Of a stretch of 64,000 nt of DNA, positions 9,590 to 36,535 are shown piece by piece. The notes beneath the pieces are model-generated. The model worked only from the letters and a program-made list of their open reading frames with translations, was not told the origin of the DNA and did no database searches. How positions within the stretch are numbered: position 1 is the stretch's first letter; the number at the start of each line of letters is the position of its first letter. The stretch lies in assembly GCA_976551045.1 (NCBI GenBank), contig CDPCPM010000026.1, positions 8,432,001 through 8,496,000 on the forward strand. Direction: 5' to 3'. A program made the translations under genes and the position numbers. The DNA comes from Glaucostegus cemiculus (taxonomy: Eukaryota).

Positions 9590-10460
9590 TGGATCAGAAA
9601 TGGAAAACTGGAAGAAATCTGCGGGTTAAACAGCATCTGTGGAGACATAGGGTGCAAGTCAATGTTTCTTTTCAAGACCCTGCATTGGGACTGAGAGGGA
9701 ATAGGAAAGACTGCCAGTGCATAGCAATATGTATGGGTTGGCCAGGAGGTGGTGTAGTTGTGGGATCGAGGCTGGTTGGTGATAGATAGAACCAGATAGG
9801 GAGGGGATGATGGGTACATGGAACCATTTGGTGAAGGAAGGGTGGGAAGAGGATATGAGGTGAACAAAGGGAAAAGAAAACAAGGTGGAAGGGTAAGTGT
9901 GTGGGGGAGGTGAACACGAGGGGTGTGCGTTACCTGAAATTAGAAAATTCAATATTGACACCATTGGTTTGTAAGCTATCCAAGTGGAATATGTAATGTT
10001 ATTCTTCTAATTCACATTTGGCATCTCCATTGTAGTGGAGAAGGGCCAAGAACAGACGGGTCAGTGTGGGAATGGGAAGGATAGTTAAAATGGCATGCAA
10101 CTGGAAACTCAAGATGGGTGTTGTGGAGGGAGTGTAGGTGCTCTACGAAACAGTTACCTAGTCTACACTTGGTTTCACCAATGTTGAGAAGGCCACATCG
10201 CAAGCTCCAATTGCAGTAGACCAGGTTGGAGGAGAACCTCTGCCTCACCTGGAAGGGCTGTTTAGGTCCTTTGATGGTGGTGAGGGGGGGTGGTGAAAGG
10301 ATGGGGTGCTTCACCTCCTTGTGTTGCAGGTGAAAATGCCAGGAGACAGGTGGGTGAGGAGGATAAGCAGACCAGAGAGTCCCAAAGAGTGTGATCGCTG
10401 TGGAAAGCAGAAAGGGTAGAGAGAGGGGAAGATATGACTGGTGGTGAGATTGCTTTGGAT
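9590..10460 (-). mobile_element. Penelope-like retroelement remnant (GIY-YIG endonuclease plus terminal repeat)
   Basis: Minus ORF 10012-10470 contains GPKQPFQVRQRFSSNLVYC...CGLLNIGETKCRLGNCFVEHL...PVACHFN, a GIY-YIG/PLE signature; purine-rich terminal region to about 9600. Confidence 0.82.
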
Positions 10461-12993: not shown

Positions 12994-13245
12994 ACATTCC
13001 ACACTCCAAGCCTTGGGGATGAAGAATTTGAGATTCCCCCCATAACCCCCCCACCAGAAACAGAACCCACCCTGGGACTTACAGACATGGTGTCAGCTTT
13101 CCAAGGCCTTAATGATGCATTGCCCTCACAAGAGAATGAATTCGCACCTCACTTTCCCCCACAGAGCCTGGATCTGCCTTCCATCACAATATCCAGGAGT
13201 ATTATGGACCAAGATGGTGGAATGCTCAGCAATGGTTTGACTGTG
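12994..13245 (+). CDS. TOX3: TOX3 internal coding exon (N-terminal acidic/Pro-rich region, [22 protein letters not shown]...SNGLTV)
   Basis: Acceptor ttctctcttCAG ends at 12993; donor GTG|gtgggt at 13246; 252 nt, phase 0/0. [19 protein letters not shown] and [15 protein letters not shown] are TOX-family motifs. Confidence 0.93.
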
Positions 13246-19279: not shown

Positions 19280-19467
19280 NNNNNNNNNNNNNNNNNNNNN
19301 NNNNNNNNNNNNNNNNNNNNNNNNNNNNNNNNNNNNNNNNNNNNNNNNNNNNNNNNNNNNNNNNNNNNNNNNNNNNNNNNNNNNNNNNNNNNNNNNNNNN
19401 NNNNNNNNNNNNNNNNNNNNNNNNNNNNNNNNNNNNNNNNNNNNNNNNNNNNNNNNNNNNNNNNNNN
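19280..19467. other. Assembly gap (188 N) inside a TOX3 intron
   Basis: Run of n characters. Confidence 1.
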
Positions 19468-22400
19468 CACAGTGCACCACAAAAAATCTTCAGCCCAAGA
19501 GGCTTGAGGGGCAACAGCTGAGCGATTTATCTCTGCGCTATTATAGGCTTTGCTAGCATTCAGAATTTCATTTTTCTCATTTGGTTTAAGAGCTTAATTC
19601 TGCAGGTAGTTGTGAATGGGGGGGGGGGGGGTGTGGGGGGAAGTAAAACACAGTTCACATATAAATTGCCAGAACAGGAGTATGTGCAGAGAGCTGATAA
19701 AATGTCTGAATAGAGCTGACCTTTCATGTTGGTGAAAGTTGCTGGGGGATTCATCCTCATAATTACCATATAGATTATTTTATTCCTCTTCTGCAATGAA
19801 ACATTTCAGAGAGCAGTACTGCTGATTGAATGAAAATTGAACTTGTTAACGGTCTTTCCAGCTTTGACTTAGAAGTGCTAGGGGACTCTGGTGTATGTTA
19901 TGTAAGGTTAGTTTTAATGAATTCTGATATTAACTCAAAAGGAGCAGTGAATGTCAGAGCGAAATGCATTTTCCTATAGTCCTCACTTATTGTTCTGTTA
20001 ATGCAGGAGATTTCACTTAAGTATACATACTATAATATTGAGTGCAATTTACCAAAGTCTGCACAATATTCAGAACACCAGTTTATATTACCAGAGCTGT
20101 CCCATTAAATTGTATATATAGGAGTTTACGTTCCATAATGTTCAGTGACAATTTTGCCCTTTCCCATGTTTCCAGGCAATACTATAGATGAGGTTGCAAT
20201 CCCCATTTTAATTGAAATGCGAAATGATGCAGCTAATAGCACACTAAAAAAGGAAAATTGCTTTATATATCAAACATATTGGAGTATAGTTGTACTTGTA
20301 TCCCAAATCCTGTTAGTGAATATTCATTAGGACTAAAAAGAAATTGTTTTCACACTATAAATGTGGAGAAAGCATTTATCTGCCTATTTTACCTCCAAGC
20401 AAACCTTCCCATAATGGCTTTTTTTTTGCTGTGATTTGTGGCATATTTAAGCAGCAGTACAGATGCTCTTTTTTATGTATAAACATTGTACATAACATTT
20501 AAATCAATTCACGTTTTTAATCAATTTAGTGAATTAACAGCCTTGTTTGTGGAGCTGCAAGTGAACTAGTTATTTTATGCATCATTAAAATGGTTAATAT
20601 CTGGAACGTTTTGTTCTTTTGGACGAAGTATTGACTGCACAGTTGTTTATCTTCTTATTCCTATCATAAAAATAGCTACAAAATTGTCCGTTTTAGCATA
20701 ATAACTCGACAAGAAATTAAATTGCTTGTATAACCCTGTAATTCTAATATTTCCCTCAATTTGACATTTAAAGAAGTTAACAAGGTTGATGGAAAATTTA
20801 AGTGACTGAAAATCCTTTATCTAGAGCAAAGTCATCAGTCAGAGAAAAAGTACAAGGATAGTGATGGGAGAAACCATAAATAATGGCTTTGAGTGCTGCA
20901 GATGCTCATCTTAAGAAACCTGAAAATTTTCCAAATTTCCAATTACCTCTTTAATTGAGTGATAATTGTAGTTGATAGTACTCAATAACAATTGCACTTA
21001 ATTCCACCCATTGACAATTCACACTGCCTGTTTGATCAGAATCAAATATTTTAGGAAAAAACAGTTTTTAATTGTTTTCATGGAAGTTGCCTTGCTTCAA
21101 ATTTACTCCTTAAATTGCACCTTTTAGTATATACATCTTTGAGCTGACCTTAAATGTGCAGCACCTGTTGATTTCTTTTGCCACAACTTAATTTGTGAGG
21201 TTTGTGCACACTAGTGAAGATTTTTTTCTCCCCCCCAGTTTTTCACATTTATGCCAATATTAAGTCTTAAAGTTTATAATGATACATATTGAGATTTTCC
21301 ATCAGTATATCAATTTGAATGTTATAATGAAACCTAATTTAGAATGCTGAAGAGCATCAGAAAACAGGACATGTTGTCTCCATACTTGTAAGCTTCATTA
21401 TAAAACCCTCAACAATGTGGCTGCTGAATTTTGGTTCCTGCCTCATGCTTCATTACAGTGAGGAATGAGTAAAGCATGCACTTCATGTACAAAATACAAT
21501 GACTATTTTCCCAAGATCGATGATAAAGCAGCTGTATGAAAAGCAGAGTTGTAATGGCAACTGCATCCTCTGCTTCTACACATGCAGAAGTTAACCATAA
21601 ACATTGTAAAAGTCTTTGTTAAAGACATGCTAAGTGCTTCATGTCTAATTTCCCATTTTAATCTGTGCCAAAATTGACAGCTTTGGTATGCTTCAGATTT
21701 TAAAGGCAAAAATGAATTTTCTGAAAGTGATAACAAGAATCCATTTGATGTCACTGCATCATACACACGGGTAGATTTGTAACAAAATTACAGAATCACA
21801 TGTACAAGTTTTATTCAGTTGTTTGGCACACAAAAATGTTACACTATGTATAAGGATTTCTGTTCCCTTGGTGTGCTCTTCAGTAGAAGATCCTGTCCCA
21901 CCAGAATGTGAATTTCCACTCTGGTGAATAATAATGGGAAATTTCCATTCTTACATGGCAATAACTAGGGTCACAAAACAACTTCAACTCACCTAGCTTA
22001 TTAAAGTTAAATAAATAACCAAGCAATCAACCATTTAAAAAAAAAGTCAAATATCTCATGGACAGAATATACCACTAGTAGCAATGACATATGAAGGACT
22101 CATTGGACACTCTAACTAAAAACGTGTCTCTTGCACACACTAGCTCTATAGACAATCCCATTTATGGGTCAGTGATATTGCACAAGAGCAAACTCCACAG
22201 CAAGCCTAATCATAACTTGGCCTTATAGAAAGAGTTAACATCACCTCATAACCAATAAAAGTAAGCTTTTTTGAATGCATTTGGAAAGCAATAAATAAAG
22301 ACCTTTCTGTCCACTGGTTATAAACAACATTGCAAATATTCACACTTCTTCACATTTGTGTAGTGCCACATTTCTACAAATTTATCTTGTCCTGTTGTCA

Positions 22401-22641: not shown

Positions 22642-22911
22642 GACCTGGGCCAGGCACAAGTTCCCCAGTACCACCATGATCCAAACATGGGGATGAGGTC
22701 TGTTGTTCACATGGCTGATGTTAATCAAGCAGGAATAATGCAACACAATCAGCTGACCACCATTAACCAATCACAGCTGAGTGCCCAGTTGGGGTTGAAT
22801 CTAGGAGGGGGCAACGTGCCACAGAATTCACCTTCACCCCCTGCTAGCAAGTCAGCCACCCCATCTCCTTCCAGCTCCGTAAATGATGATGATGCTGAGG
22901 AATTTAATAGG
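22642..22911 (+). CDS. TOX3: TOX3 coding exon ([10 protein letters not shown]...[20 protein letters not shown]...[17 protein letters not shown]...EFNR)
   Basis: Acceptor ttcttcttccaatatAG ends at 22641; donor AGG|gtaggt at 22912; 270 nt, phase 0/0. [20 protein letters not shown] and [13 protein letters not shown] match recalled TOX3. Confidence 0.95.
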
Positions 22912-23693: not shown

Positions 23694-23921
23694 GTTAGTG
23701 TAGAGAAACGAGCTGCAGTAGATTCGGGTAAAAAGCCCAAGACACCAAAGAAGAAGAAGAAGAAAGATCCCAATGAGCCTCAGAAGCCAGTGTCGGCTTA
23801 TGCTCTATTCTTCAGGGATACACAAGCTGCCATCAAAGGACAAAACCCCAATGCCACTTTTGGAGAAGTTTCCAAAATTGTAGCATCAATGTGGGACAGT
23901 CTAGGAGAGGAACAAAAACAG
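23694..23921 (+). CDS. TOX3: TOX3 coding exon: basic NLS ([17 protein letters not shown]) and N-terminal part of the HMG box
   Basis: Acceptor ctgtttCAG ends at 23693; donor CAG|gtaaat at 23922; 228 nt. [48 protein letters not shown] is the TOX HMG box. Confidence 0.98.
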
Positions 23922-24089: not shown

Positions 24090-25500
24090 TGGGGTACAAA
24101 TGTATAAAAGTGGTAAAAACACAACATTGTCATGCTCCATAAATCCATAGATTATAGAGTTGTTCCCATGAAATGGAAGGTAACAAACATAAGCCCACTA
24201 TTTTAAAAACCAGGGTCAGTGTGGAACTGCAGATCAGTTAACTTGATATTGATAGGCAGGAAAACAGTAGAATATGTTATTATGGAGGGTTATCAGGGCA
24301 TCTAGAAAATAATAATAGGATTGGGCAGTGTCAGCATGAATTGGTGAAAGGGAAATCATGTTTGACAAAACTTTGAGTGTTTTGTGGTTCTATAGAGCAA
24401 AATAAGTAAGGGCAGACCAGTGGATGTGGTGTATTTGGACTGTCAGAAGACCCTCAGTGAAGTGTTACAAAAGAGCTTGCCAAACAAAATTTGGGTTATG
24501 TGGGATTGAGGATAATACACTGGTGTGGATGGAGAACTGGTTAACAGAAAATAGAGGGTAGGAATTAAGTCATTTTCCAATTAGTAGGCTGTGACTGGTC
24601 TGGTGATGCAGGGATAAATGCTGGGCCCCATCTGTTCACATTCTATATTTCACTGGGTTGCTTCATCCAAGTCTGATGAGTTGGATAAGGAAACCAAGTG
24701 TAAAGCATCCAAGTTTGCTGATGATACAAAGTTGTGTGGCAGAATGAGTTATGAGGAAAATGCAGAGAAACTTCAGGGGAATGCCCATGTGAATGGACAA
24801 GAAGAGAGCAGATGGAATATAATATTGAAAAATGTGAGGTCATCCATTTTGGTTGAAAAAAATAGATAAGTAGAATGTATTTTAAATGTTGACAGTTTGA
24901 AAGGTGAAGGTCTTCAGAAGGACCTAGGCAGATACCACAAACCACTAGGAAGAAAAATGGTTTGTTTTTCCTTTGTTGCATGGATTTAAACTTATATAGG
25001 GCCCTTATATGACTGTGCCTGTTCAAGTCTGGTTTCTCTACTGATGATAGAGGAACTGCAACAAAATTCACAACATTGGTTCCTGGGATGGGGCAATTGT
25101 CCCTTAAGGAGACCTTATGTAGACTGGGCTTATACTGTCTTGAGTTTGGAGGAATGAAAGGTGATCTTATTGAAACATACAGAATTCCTTTGGGCTCAGC
25201 AAGATGCTTGGAGAGATTCCCCTTGCTGTGGTTTCTAGAATCACAATCACCATCTCAAAATAAATGGTTGGCCATTCAGAAAAATGATGAGGAGAAAGTT
25301 CTTCACAGAAGAGAGCTGGAAGCTAGTCACTGAGGATATTTAATGTAAGGTTCAATAGATTTTTGTTAACTAAGGAAGCAATAAAAATAATGTTTCTGCT
25401 GGAAAGTGGCTCTAAGGTAAAAGCCATATCTTGATCTTATTGAATGGTGGATCAGGTACAAAGGGCCAAATGGCCTATTCGAGTTTCCGTTTCTTAAATT
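24090..25500 (+). mobile_element. Degenerate CR1-type LINE filling most of the intron that splits the HMG box
   Basis: cagcatgaattggtgaaagggaaatcatgtttgacaaa; gtggatgtggtgtatttggac (VDVVYLD); SKFADDTKL; 3' UTR aagggccaaatggcctattc. Confidence 0.88.
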
Positions 25501-25630: not shown

Positions 25631-25711
25631 GTATACAAGAGAAAAACAGAAGCTGCCAAAAAGGAATATCTAAAAGCTCTTGCTGCCTACCGAGCCAGCC
25701 TTGTTTCAAAG
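25631..25711 (+). CDS. TOX3: TOX3 coding exon: C-terminal helix of the HMG box ([27 protein letters not shown])
   Basis: Not in the ORF track; translated by hand. Acceptor ttttttgaatatAG ends at 25630; donor AAG|gtaatt at 25712; 81 nt, phase 0/0. Confidence 0.97.
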
Positions 25712-28795: not shown

Positions 28796-29566
28796 GCTGC
28801 TGCAGAATCAGCGGAAGCACAGACCATGCGTTCTGTGCAGCAGACTTTGGCATCGACGAGTCTTTCAACTTCCCTTCTTATGAATTCATCACTTTCGCAG
28901 CATGCATCTGTCTCAGTGTCAACCCAGTCCCTGCAACAGACACTGCCAAGGGCAATTGCCCCCAAACCAATGAGATTGCCCCTGCAAGGCAATCAGCTGG
29001 CATCTGTTTCTATCACAGCGAACATGTCAACAAACATTGCCACACCCATGGGAACTTCTATGGGCACCACTATGGTCCCTACTTCACCTTCACCCCAGTT
29101 AAGCCCTCCACTGCAGTCTCAACAACACCAGATGCAGCAGATGCAACAGCATCAATTGCAGCACTTCCAGCAGCATCACATGCAGCAGCAACTGCATCAG
29201 CAAATACAGCATCAGCATCAAATACAACAACACCAAATGCAGCAGCAGCAAATGCACCATCAAATGCAGCAGCAGCAAATTCAGCAGCACATGCAGCAAC
29301 AGTTGCATCAGCAGCTGCAACAGCAGCAGATCCAGCAGCAGTTACAGCAAATGCAGTTACAGCACATGCAGAAACAGCAAATCCAGCAGCTGCAACAGCA
29401 ACACCCACCTCAGCACTCACCACCTCAGCATTCCCCTGTTGCATCACAACCAGTGGTGGCCTCACAGATCACTTCTCCTCTTCCCACACGGTCAAGTCCA
29501 CAACCAGTCCAGCAACAACAGCAACCTCCACTACAAACCCAGGCCCAGACCCAAGTATTGCCACAG
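28796..29566 (+). CDS. TOX3: TOX3 large exon with polyQ/His-rich region ([20 protein letters not shown]...QTQVLPQ); reads through to TAA at 29581 if unspliced
   Basis: Acceptor ttgttctctttaCAG ends at 28795; phase-0 donor CAG|gtcagt at 29567. [20 protein letters not shown], RxIAPKP and the Q-rich tract identify TOX3 rather than TOX, TOX2 or TOX4. Confidence 0.96.
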
Positions 29567-29716
29567 GTCAGTAAGTATTAAAAATGGAAAATTCCCAGTG
29601 AATCAGGTTGATATGCCATTGTATACTGACATGACTCGTGTTTCTAAAATGGGAATTGAGTGGTATTTCATAAATTGATGAATCCATTGTAATAATGACC
29701 TCCAACTGTTTGTTAT

Positions 29717-29959
29717 AATAAAAATATACTTCAGGATCTTCTTTGACTTGTGATAAACTGATCACAACATGGCTTTTTAGGAATGAATTATGCACCCATT
29801 AAGTTTATTGTTCATTATAATGTGAAGCTGAGCATCTTAGCTCCGTTCTGTACTATGTATAAAATACATTTTATACAGCAACACATATTACATACTTTGA
29901 AGAAAATGTAAAACAAGAAAAATAACATTGTTTAAATAAAAGTTATACTAGTAAATAAA
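29717..29959 (+). promoter_or_regulatory. Cluster of AATAAA hexamers (29717, 29935, 29954); possible intronic polyadenylation for a short isoform
   Basis: Three canonical hexamers within 400 nt of the read-through stop at 29581. The AT-rich background makes chance occurrence possible. Confidence 0.35.
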
Positions 29960-30788
29960 ATGGTGTGGTAATTGGTATAAACATTTTACAATTCAGTATT
30001 GAAATAGAAATAATACTGCACAATTGGATGAGTTAAGTGTAGATTGACATTAACCAAATCTACCTATTGTTTAATTGGTGGCTTCAAGAAAATCCTTCCC
30101 ATATGTTAAAGAATGTGAATTCAGTGATTTTTTTATGCCACATTTTATATTTGTTTACTGTACAGAAATTAACATCATTTTCACTTCTATTATGTCAGTA
30201 CACCACATAAATGAAGTTAGAATTATCCTTGTAGATTTGACTAATATAAGCTTTCAATAGCAACTCCACTATTTGAGCGATGTCAGCCTACAATTAGAAA
30301 GGAATTGGAATCGATAAGGTGCATCATGCACAGAACAACTGTTACTGATTTTTTTTCCTTGGTGGGAAATCCCCAAATATATTACTTGGGGTGGGGGGGG
30401 GGGGAAGAAAAGCCCTTTATTCCATCCTATTTACTTTAAACTCCATAGAATGTTTAGATCTTACTGGATTTAGTTCACTCTTGAGGAAGGCCTTCATAAT
30501 TCATTAGTATTGATGGTCCTTTCACACTTCTGAAATGAACCCCACAGATAACACACTGATTATCTGATTCCACAATTGGACGACAATCAGGAAAATGCAG
30601 TTACTCTCTGTACTGGTATGCTGCTTTGCAAATAAAATCCATCTGCTCCACTATCTCCAGTGACCATTGTTGAACAGAATAAAGAATGCATAATGAGTTT
30701 GATTTGAAGAAGCAGGAAATGAATTAAAATCTGCACTGATTGGCCTCAGATTTTACTAACTGTATTTTTCCTTTGAATTCTCTTATAG

Positions 30789-30798
30789 GATATTTGAT
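30789..30798 (+). other. Candidate 10-nt microexon (GATATTTGAT) with in-frame stop
   Basis: TACTAAC branch point at 30754-30760, pyrimidine tract, TAG ending at 30788, then GTAAGT donor at 30799. Confidence 0.5.
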
Positions 30799-33684
30799 GT
30801 AAGTTTTTATTTTGATTGTCCTCCCCACATACTATCAACAAGACATTTTAGTGTGACATTCTGCTTCCCAGATACAAAACTAGCTCTTGTAAATGCATAA
30901 TGCATATAGGAATACTAATAAGAATCTAAGATAATGTATTTAGGAAATAACATTCATTGAATTGGACCGTGTTCTAAATAGATGCAGTAGTAAAAGATCT
31001 TATCAGTTGTCTAATCATTCACCAGTAAATGAATTTGTAATTTGTATTAATAGCATTGAGAAAAAAGTACTGAGCACCTTTGTGTATCCTGCCTGCACAC
31101 AGATGGGATTAGCAGTTCACATTATTTCATTTCTCATCCAAGTGCTTCAGAAATGAGGCTGCCATCGTAATGTTCTCTAGAACAGCATGGCTGCCGTCCC
31201 CAGCTGTCTCTAGTGATTAATTACAGCATCTGTCCTGTCAGAAGCTATAGTGGAGAAGTCTGGTTAAAATTGCAAATTAGCACTGGCAACAACCTTAAAC
31301 TGCTGATGATAAAATGAAAATTAAAAACAGCAAGTGTCATGCATGACTGGAATCCCAATACACACTGGGGTACATGCTAGACTATGTGTCCACAGCTACC
31401 AGCTATTAGATGTAAACAGAAATTAAAATAATAAGCAGTCACAAAATAGCAGGTATTGTGTTGAGGCTGAACTACACTTACGTTGATAAGGAACATGCAT
31501 TTCTCCTTTACTGTGCAACTGTTCAGCATTTTGATCCCTGTATACAAATATTTAATGGTGTAGTGGTGTATATCTGATTAAATTCTTAAATCCATTGCTC
31601 AGAATAAATTAGATGGGAAGAAAAGAAAGCTTTGTGTGGGGAAATTATCTCCTCCAATTAACATTTCATCTGCTATCAGAAAATTAATATGAATTAGGCA
31701 TCGAGATAATTCAGTGCAAATCAGCTTTTATATTTTATTGTCAGGTATAATTACATTTTTACTTCTGACAAAAGAGTAATATGAATCATATTTTAATTTA
31801 TGTTTATTTTTGGCTATTTCAGACATTAAAGTTTGCATGACTCATTCTGCCCTAGGGAAATTAGCTGCCTCCAATGTAAAATTATGATGTGATATCTCAC
31901 TTGCATGAACAGAATTTTTCTGTCCCTTCATTGCCTATTCATGGCACAAATATTTAACATGTCAATAATGTACAATCACAGAAAAATAAGGAGTTTACAA
32001 ATTTTAACAGTAAGGTTTAAATAATTTTATTTGTTTTCATCTAACGCGGCAAGATTACACACAGGGATCTTTACCATTCTGGTAGAGAGCTGTATCATTA
32101 TTCCCATTAAACAGCTTTGCATTAGTTGAATGAACACAAAGTTTTAATTATAGTTGGCACTAGGTCATTAATCACTAACTTAGAGTACAACAATCCTGGT
32201 GACTGTATACAGCATAATTTCAGTCAGCCATTATCACCTGACCCATTGATGTTTGCAGTATTATGAAACAGATGGATTAAATATCTCAGGTTTAACCAGT
32301 GTCTTCTGCCTTGCTCTATTGAATAGTCTTTAAGCATTTGAAAAGATTCTTTCTATTACCCACTTCATGGAGTAGTTTGCAGTACTGGACTTGAGTATAA
32401 CCTTCCTTGCCCCTTTGTTTGGCTTTTGTTTTGTAACAGCTGTTATCATCGTTTTTGGTCAGCTGTGATTGCTGGAGGGAAAATAGGACCAGATGGTGTT
32501 TTGCTATGCATGAATGGAGTGTTAGAGTAGTTTGGACTGAATAGGCCACGATTGAATGGTGTCTGTTCACCACCTGCCCCCTTAGCAGGCAGTACTTGGA
32601 TCAGAGTAGCATGATCTGTCTTGGACTTAGTAGATTTGGATGGGAAAATATAAGAGAACTTTGTTGGATTTAGCTCATATTTATTGATCTGCTGTGAGGG
32701 CAGCAACATTTTGCAGTACACAGTCAATTTGATTTAATTGGATATGACACCCCATGTACATGTAATCTATCATTGTTTTCTTTCAATACAGTTTATCTGT
32801 TTGTTTCCATGGAAACATGGAATTGTCGTATAGTATCAGATAAAGGAAGGAAGGAGGCAGGAGAATGTTTCAGTGTGTGTTTTTCCTTTTGTTCATTCTT
32901 TTGTAATTACGTTGCGTGTAACAAAGGTGCAAATCTTCAAAAAGTGCCTCCACCCAGTTTTCTGGTGCAGGCACCAGTCTTGAAATGCTAAGATGCAAAG
33001 GCAGTACTTGAACCATGTATTGTTGTCCCAATTAATTTCAAAGATTAAAGCGTGCAAAATGGTGTTTTTACTCATTTTTAATTTGAATAGTAATTACTAA
33101 TTATTGTGCAGACTTTACAAGGACAAGCTCTCTGAATATAATGCTTATTTGTGGCTAAAATGACCCTCCTTTTGTTGTGGAGTGCTTTGCCTATCTAATT
33201 TGTATGCAATCCTTGCTGGTCCTTGTCTGTTGGAAGCCAAAGTATAGTTTTCTTCATTCCTGTATCTACAGGTCACTCACTCCTTTGAAAAGAATGATTG
33301 TGAGTTTTGTTACCATGTATAAAGTTTAGTGCTTGACCTTCGACAGAATTCAGGGGCAAGATTGGGTATTTTCTTTATTCTCGTCTGTTGTGCACTCTCT
33401 GTATTTAGCATGAGGCTACAGCAAATATGCAGCTTCACACTCAGTATATGAAGGAAAGCTATTAAGACTGAAACCACATTATAGAGACCCCCAGTTATTC
33501 ATTACAAGGAGCATTGGTATCATTATTCCTTGCCGACTGTTGATACTACATTTACATCTTGTTTGGGCACCACAGAGATAGAAAATTTCGCCGACTCTTT
33601 ACCCTCCACTTCAGAACCATTTAAACATTGGATTAATTAGAGGAAAAAAAATTACCTATTTAAATAGTTTTTAACTACTTCCAG

Positions 33685-33860
33685 ACCTTTTCACCACCTC
33701 CGCCTGAAGTCCAGCCTATCATCAGCTCTCCCCCACCAACTCCTGTGGGTACTACCACTCCAATACGATGCATGAGGACTGGCTGCACAAATCCACCAAT
33801 CCAGAGCGTGGAGTGGGATAATGAATACTGTAGCAGCGAGTGTGTAGTTAACCACTGCAG
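33685..33860 (+). CDS. TOX3: Penultimate TOX3 exon: Pro-rich linker and Cys-rich motif ([58 protein letters not shown])
   Basis: Acceptor ttaactacttcCAG ends at 33684; donor CAG|gtaaca at 33861; 176 nt open frame, phase 0/2. Peptide resembles the recalled TOX4 C-terminus ([10 protein letters not shown]...[15 protein letters not shown]). Confidence 0.9.
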
Positions 33861-35396: not shown

Positions 35397-35457
35397 GGAT
35401 ATCTTCATGGCGTGGGTTGCCTCTCGTAATCAGAGCTATACTGCTTCGGTGAAGTGA
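35397..35457 (+). CDS. TOX3: Terminal TOX3 coding exon ((R)[19 protein letters not shown])
   Basis: Acceptor cttgtgtcttctgTAG ends at 35396. It completes the phase-2 Arg codon (AG|G); TGA at 35455-35457. Resembles the recalled TOX4 end [20 protein letters not shown]. Confidence 0.9.
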
Positions 35458-36535
35458 AGATTTGCCATCAACATTTTTGAGCCAAAACTCGGCATTTATC
35501 AGACAGACTGCCAAGAAGATGTTCTGAAAGGCAGCCTGACGTGCTTTGTTTCCTTGTAGCTACATGGGCACAGACTTCAGAAGGCTTTCCAGTGACAGGC
35601 TATACAGACTTTCTTTAGGCCCACCTGCCATTTCTGCCAGTGCCTGGAGAGCTGGCCATTTTACATTGTGTAATGTAGCTTCAGATGATTATTTTGTTTG
35701 ACATGAACTTAAAGGGCATGGCTTTTAGTAAATGACATGCCTCTGCATGATTGCTGAAGACTGTGAGAAGACTCAGATGGAAAAACTTCTTTTGTGACAG
35801 TGATGTCATTGTGACCAGTCAAGACATAAAGTACTGAGTGAAGCATAATACTTAAGTGGAATGCTAACTACTTTTTTTTTAACAATAGCTCTATCACTTT
35901 CTAATGGCTTAAAGGGGAAATTAGATTTTTGTTCAGAAATTCTTTCCATTTTACCTATTGTACACAATGATCAAGTTTAAGAACATTGGTTTCTCACAGA
36001 TGTAATTATTTTCTAAGTTCTTAAGAAACCAGGTTCATCATGTAATCGAGCAATCATGTGGTATCCATGTAAGATCTTTTTCATTATTAGTTTCTATTTC
36101 TGCAACCAAAAAGCATTATTTTGATATGTACTGTATTGTAGGAATTGCTTTTTGTATGGCAATTTCTTAGCATAGTCTGCTCAATTGAACTGTGGCTCCT
36201 CTAAAGAAGAGTTCTGTGCATAAGGCCAAATGCTTTAAAAAAGCTCCTCTTTAATGCAGTAGTCAAGTTAGGAATGGCTAGAGAAAAAAAGCCCATAAAC
36301 CAAAATCAATAATGTTTAATATTTTTACTTCTGTTTGTATTTAAATTTTTTGTATTAAAATGTGTTCTTATTTAAGGTTTAATTATTGAGAAACAATAGC
36401 TGATGTATTAATGATTGACCTTGCAGTGAAACATGTGTTTCTTCATTCAGAAACAAAAGTTTTCTTTCTCTATTGTAACTGATCTTTAATTTCCTTATTT
36501 TGGCTCTAATAAAAAGAGACATGAAAATACTTCAG
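35458..36535 (+). other. TOX3: Probable 3' UTR of the long TOX3 isoform
   Basis: AU-rich stretch with no recognised repeat, running from the stop codon to AATAAA at 36508; the 3' end is estimated. Confidence 0.55.
36508..36513 (+). promoter_or_regulatory. Candidate polyadenylation signal AATAAA (long isoform)
   Basis: Canonical hexamer about 1.05 kb after the stop, preceded by U-rich sequence; ATTAAA also at 36354. Confidence 0.55.

Follow-up and report, generated by a model that had tools for sequence, protein, structure and literature searches.

Neural microexons range from 3 to 27 nt in length; most known poison exons exceed this length, and many of them lie within conserved intronic islands. 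In a preprint, SRRM3/4 microexons are described as having UGC between the branch point and the AG in 79% and 74% of two classes, stronger donors and strong branch points, with mutations at position -1 being detrimental (bioRxiv 10.1101/2024.09.17.613571). QKI and SF1 compete for ACUAA branch sites in mammalian cells, and strong repression by QKI in a model intron (RAI14 exon 11) required two ACUAAC elements (PMC13004596). Pseudo splice sites are more numerous than real ones by an order of magnitude (PMC4702124). The C-terminal domain of TOX4 holds zinc via four Cys and has an affinity of 0.3 nM for PNUTS (PMC12278311). Here we compare with these systems a candidate 10-nt microexon within a TOX3 gene, situated upstream of exons that encode a TOX4-type tail. 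The firmer result of our analysis is the isoform context of this tail, not the microexon.

TOX3 of a ray and its alternatively spliced Cys tail

Seven AG/GT-bounded exons in the window (the whole stretch of 64 kb that was analyzed) join into a single open frame of 612 residues. The predicted protein shares 97.2% identity with TOX3 of Mobula birostris, 71.9% with human TOX3 and 49.5% with a caecilian TOX4, and it possesses an HMG box (PF00505, E 3.9e-12). From these identity figures we therefore infer that the window contains TOX3 of a ray, in agreement with the assignment made in the preliminary description. No 5' exons of TOX3 were found in the 64-kb window, and an assembly gap (a run of N at about 19280-19470) lies in the long TOX3 intron. 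The gene features relevant here are the following:

12994-13245, 22642-22911, 23694-23921, 25631-25711, 28796-29566, 33685-33860 and 35397 to the stop codon, + strand: TOX3 exons, from AG/GT boundaries and the open frame
28796-29566, + strand: TOX3 polyQ exon, 5' of the microexon intron, from tblastn with Hypanus TOX3, boundaries and frame
29567-29572, + strand: main phase-0 donor CAG/GTCAGT, read-through of which gives a tail-less end, VSKY-stop
29571-29576, + strand: alternative +4 donor TCA/GTAAGT (score 1.1), with a product that matches a skate isoform
33685-33860, + strand: Cys exon, encoding the zinc loop and first helix half of a predicted TOX4-type PNUTS-binding domain (9CI7_B, E 1.6e-12)
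35397-35458, + strand: coding part of the last TOX3 exon, giving the second helix half in the Cys frame and another short end in the skip frame

Homologue searches and cluster look-ups provided at least 40 named TOX3 proteins, spread over 16 chondrichthyan species, from lists that cover 30 of the 43 proteins in the two largest clusters. Of the 40, 18 have the Cys tail; in 13 others the Cys exon is skipped, eight read through the donor, and one uses the +4 donor. The Cys exon is hence skipped in 14 of the 40 (13 times from the main donor, once from the +4 donor), and the skip-frame end of the last exon is present in 13, including a chimaera protein. When the +4 donor is joined to the last exon, the predicted product is the end of an annotated isoform of Amblyraja radiata (P0037). 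Across the annotated isoforms, the last exon (35397-35458) is read in three frames, those of the Cys tail, of the skip and of the +4 donor. As judged from annotated proteins, TOX3 of sharks, rays and a chimaera keeps an alternatively spliced tail of the predicted TOX4 type (18 of 40). In annotation, three routes that bypass the microexon, namely skipping, read-through and the +4 donor, already yield TOX3 without the tail. The proposal that the microexon serves as a switch for tail inclusion is incomplete in this respect.

Outside the chondrichthyans we compared 46 TOX3 rows; those with names derive from mammals, a lizard and a caecilian, ten are unnamed, and bony-fish TOX3 is not among them. 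Forty-one of these rows end in VSIF or GSIF, three have a short spliced end and two are partial; none of the 46 carries the Cys tail. The peptide that results from reading through the equivalent donor is VSIF in the tetrapods retrieved and VSKY in the ray. In three mammalian records (P0065, P0069 and P0084), the equivalent donor is still joined to a short exon farther downstream. We considered their ends as remnants of the Cys exon and rejected this idea, since the alignment covers only eight residues, with P values of 0.02 (P0065) and 0.55 (P0084). In a search for TOX-like proteins among representatives at 50% identity (the best 150 of 226), the tail proved widespread in unnamed TOX-like proteins. 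One of the tailed proteins, P0112 (634 aa), has a body that scores higher against human TOX3 than against caecilian TOX4; tailed TOX3-like proteins may therefore extend beyond cartilaginous fish. From metagenome contigs, 594 pattern matches were obtained, and for none of these could kinship with the Cys exon be confirmed. A literature search largely outside subscription journals found no report on the microexon or on the chondrichthyan TOX3 tail; the tail itself can be seen in public annotation. Losing a splice choice would be a simple route for the divergence of TOX3 from TOX4.

Splice signals of the candidate microexon

The candidate microexon is located in the 4.1-kb intron between the polyQ exon and the Cys exon. 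Its parts, together with a further small candidate exon of the same intron, are:

30754-30760, + strand: consensus branch point TACTAAC, a single QKI/SF1 core motif, with the branch A at 30759
30761-30788, + strand: pyrimidine tract and TAG acceptor (score 4.4, above three of seven real acceptors)
30789-30798, + strand: candidate 10-nt microexon (non-triplet), from sequence only
30799-30804, + strand: candidate donor GAT/GTAAGT, matching the consensus throughout its intronic half and deviating from it at -1 (T) and -3
33272-33299, + strand: second candidate small exon of 28 nt, with a good acceptor, a poor branch point and a weak GTGAGT donor (1.5)

The candidate, 10 nt in length, has the site features of a poison exon, i.e., canonical splice sites and a branch point. 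From the branch A at 30759 to the G of the first AG (30787-8) we count 29 nt; the tract upstream of the acceptor at 30788 is 79% pyrimidine, and the AG-free zone spans 37 nt, with no AG preceding the acceptor. UGC is absent between branch point and AG; TGC occurs within 30700-30900 at 30732, 30862 and 30894 only. The positions that the preliminary description had given for the branch point, the 29-nt spacing, the microexon and the GTAAGT donor were all reproduced. Its reading of TACTAAC as a QKI/SF1 motif is likewise borne out, as ACUAAC agrees with the site described in PMC13004596. Copies of TACTAAC number three on the + strand and four on the - strand of the 64-kb window. No annotated protein compared supports the 28-nt candidate exon. 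Rfam models gave three matches on 29567-31100, all far under the gathering score and none over the microexon, and folding of 30690-30870 revealed no notable structure (z = -0.35).

We scored branch points, acceptors and donors with approximate frequency tables, and the same matrix assigns just 1.1 to the +4 donor at 29571, though its orthologue is used in skate. On this scale, the branch point of the microexon reaches 4.6, compared with at most 3.1 for the seven real TOX3 acceptors, and is the strongest of nine scored. Its donor, at 3.6 by the approximate matrix, falls slightly under all six real TOX3 donors (3.7-5.2); the acceptor of the Cys exon is weak (2.2). The summed score of 12.5 is the third highest among the 3343 AG-anchored units of the + strand; on the antisense strand, two of 2972 candidates exceed it. 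Markov nulls of order 2 and order 5 (60 sequences each) yield 1.7 and 1.8 equal-scoring sites per 64 kb. Within its intron the microexon is the best acceptor-donor pair, a score that 43 of 1000 null introns reach. Rarer by chance are sites in which all three signals are jointly good (one of 1000 null introns and one of 60 null windows, with thresholds fitted to the site) and those with an exact TACTAAC, a first YAG and GTRAGT within 30 nt (one and zero of 60 null windows, none of 1000 null introns); both of these definitions were tailored post hoc to the microexon. A less strict pattern is found once per real strand. The choice of test decides whether the site exceeds chance. The signals of the microexon are modestly above chance and not decisive, and the unit is a good candidate that remains within the range of decoys. 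Further high-scoring small AG..GT units on the + strand are located at 10330 (20 nt), 9541 (17 nt), 38858, 41943 and 56122; those at 10330 and 9541 are positioned upstream of the first TOX3 exon found and possibly lie within a TOX3 intron.

Reading frames and competing explanations

Two donors, the microexon, the 28-nt candidate and the Cys exon, each of the latter three included or skipped, define 16 routes, eight of which contain the microexon. All four routes that join donor 29567 to the microexon read D-I-stop, precisely as had been predicted for splicing to the phase-0 donor. If the Cys exon is included, this stop lies 177 or 205 nt upstream of the last junction, a geometry of the NMD type; if the Cys exon is skipped, the distance shrinks to 1 or 29 nt, and such messages would escape NMD. 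From donor 29571 the four routes diverge: the first shifts the frame and has NMD geometry (85 nt), the second runs in frame into the second helix half of the last exon, the third places 14 extra residues in front of an intact tail, and the fourth closes with the peptide of the skip frame. The in-frame outcomes follow from simple arithmetic, as the 4 nt of the +4 donor plus the 10 nt of the microexon equal the 176-nt Cys exon modulo 3, and the +4 donor, the microexon and the 28-nt exon together make up a 42-nt in-frame insert that is free of stops. In total, three of the eight microexon-containing routes are of the NMD type and five escape. Since the enumeration includes escape and coding routes, a poison effect is one outcome among several. 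The NMD geometry originally expected thus stands for the route that was named, with its 177 nt; it does not extend to skipping of the Cys exon, which leaves 1 nt and permits escape, or to the +4 donor, with which the microexon can restore the frame.

The product of the microexon was found in none of the 40 annotated chondrichthyan TOX3 proteins (among the matches listed) and in none of the 237 proteins compared. Its absence from annotation is weak evidence, because NMD targets are not entered there as proteins, 10-nt exons are poorly mapped, and the lists cover 30 of the 43 cluster members.

On balance, we lean slightly towards a cryptic (pseudo) exon that is normally skipped or included at noise level and has no selected role. 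A good branch point and acceptor would be followed by a middling donor through chance in the AT-rich TOX3 intron. Skipping would be the normal fate, because 10 nt are too short for ordinary exon definition, the donor is without a G at -1 and the UGC enhancer is missing. Trace inclusion from the main donor would lead to D-I-stop messages that are mostly cleared by NMD, and real control of the putative PNUTS-binding Cys tail would reside in the choice between donors 29567 and 29571 together with the weak acceptor of the Cys exon. That none of the 40 proteins carries the product, although one D-I-stop route would escape NMD, argues for a cryptic exon; the top rank of the pair in its intron, a branch point that beats all seven real acceptors, and the position in an intron that is a conserved hub of alternative splicing argue against it. 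A regulated microexon, in which SF1 promotes and QKI represses the ACUAAC branch point and the D-I-stop triggers NMD with the Cys exon included or produces a stable tail-less TOX3 with the Cys exon skipped, appears unlikely to us. It would fit the three good signals at the correct spacing, the tailored pattern that is missing from 1000 null introns, the distance of 177 nt from the stop to the last junction, and the competition known from ACUAA branch sites (PMC13004596). The intron also contains ACTAAY five times and TGCATG four times, against about 2 and 1.7 expected from the window density, which is not significant. The absence of the microexon from the 40 annotated proteins (among the matches listed) and the three other routes that already remove the tail count against regulation, as does the single ACUAAC near the acceptor where, in PMC13004596, two were needed for strong repression.

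If the donor were incidental, the branch point and acceptor, which form the strong half of the unit, might serve an alternative last exon (D-I-stop with intronic polyadenylation), or the motif might be a QKI site in a read-through 3' UTR. We regard this as quite improbable: the read-through ends of eight of the 40 chondrichthyan proteins, the VSIF or GSIF ends of 41 of the 46 other rows and six AATAAA in the intron, on both sides of the unit, are consistent with it, yet no annotated protein ends in D-I, though this form would escape NMD, and the density of AATAAA is near that of the window. Three AATAAA lie less than 400 nt from the read-through stop, and the read-through UTR may therefore end before the microexon. 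It is very unlikely that a branch-point-gated microexon tunes the recruitment of the PNUTS-PP1 phosphatase by TOX3 of cartilaginous fish, with the outcome set by the 4-nt tandem donor and by skipping of the Cys exon; equally doubtful is its corollary that the microexon would be poisonous or tail-removing from one donor and would yield coding, helix-only or extended tails from the other. Highly improbable, too, is a frame-compensating coding microexon that, with the +4 donor, keeps the frame from the polyQ exon into the last exon. Its products would be a half-helix tail without the zinc loop or, with the 28-nt exon, 14 residues before an intact tail; both routes are free of stops and the +4 donor is used in the annotated skate isoform, but the junction peptide is present in none of the 237 proteins compared, the frame is restored by chance in one third of cases, and the 28-nt exon suffers from its weak donor (1.5) and poor branch point.

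The TOX3 intron preceding exon 25631-25711 contains a decayed repeat (24618-25490) with reverse-transcriptase motifs that we take to be CR1-like, although Pfam gave no hit, and the end of this repeat matches the junction region of the microexon at 18 of 20 positions (25333-25352). The microexon as a decayed tail fragment of such a LINE, exonized or not, is extremely improbable: the match cannot be extended and is at chance level, as 53 of 1000 resamples attained its score of 32 and at least eight of 529 control tiles surpassed it, and no repeat pair touches 30600-31000, where a profile built from one copy gave no hit either.

The consequences differ accordingly. A cryptic microexon would have little consequence. 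If real, it would represent an unannotated, NMD-hidden layer of control on a neural, cancer-linked chromatin factor and a natural test case for the competition between QKI and SF1 at branch points outside mammals; even then, it would be partly redundant with annotated splicing routes.

Comparison with known systems

Like the poison cassette exons of AS-NMD, the ray unit is of non-triplet length, and on the main route its inclusion would put the stop farther than 50 nt ahead of the final junction (at 177 nt); it differs from them in that only three of the eight microexon-containing routes are of the NMD type. With intronic pseudoexons it shares good consensus sites that have no annotated use, and antisense decoys score as high; its three signals are, however, more evenly strong than those of the other high-scoring decoys in the window. 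The features that it has in common with the SRRM3/4 microexons described in the preprint are a length below 28 nt, a branch point that is strong by the approximate matrix, and the AG-free zone of 37 nt. In contrast to that class, the ray unit is without the UGC that about three quarters of its members possess, its donor is no stronger than the constitutive donors of the gene, and it breaks the frame on the main donor.

In comparison with RAI14 exon 11, the ray ACUAAC is placed 29 nt upstream of the AG and falls inside the zone from -63 to -20 that was analyzed in PMC13004596. That work concerns mammals and yeast and a tandem pair of elements, whereas the ray acceptor has one: no tandem ACUAAC is found near it, the nearest ACTAAY being at 30240 (about 500 nt upstream) and 30914 (about 160 nt downstream).

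The tail matches chain B of PDB 9CI7 (TOX4; E 1.6e-12). By eye, it retains all four zinc ligands and ten of the 13 interface residues described in PMC12278311, and it has V, E and I in place of K585, D586 and V604; ray TOX3 may thus bind PNUTS through this tail. A HeLa complexome lists PPP1R10/TOX3/WDR82 (PMC3494656), yet the human TOX3 rows retrieved are without the tail; TOX3 might join this complex in another way, or peptides common to TOX4 might have been assigned to TOX3. In contrast to the domain of TOX4, the ray version sits on TOX3 and is alternatively spliced.
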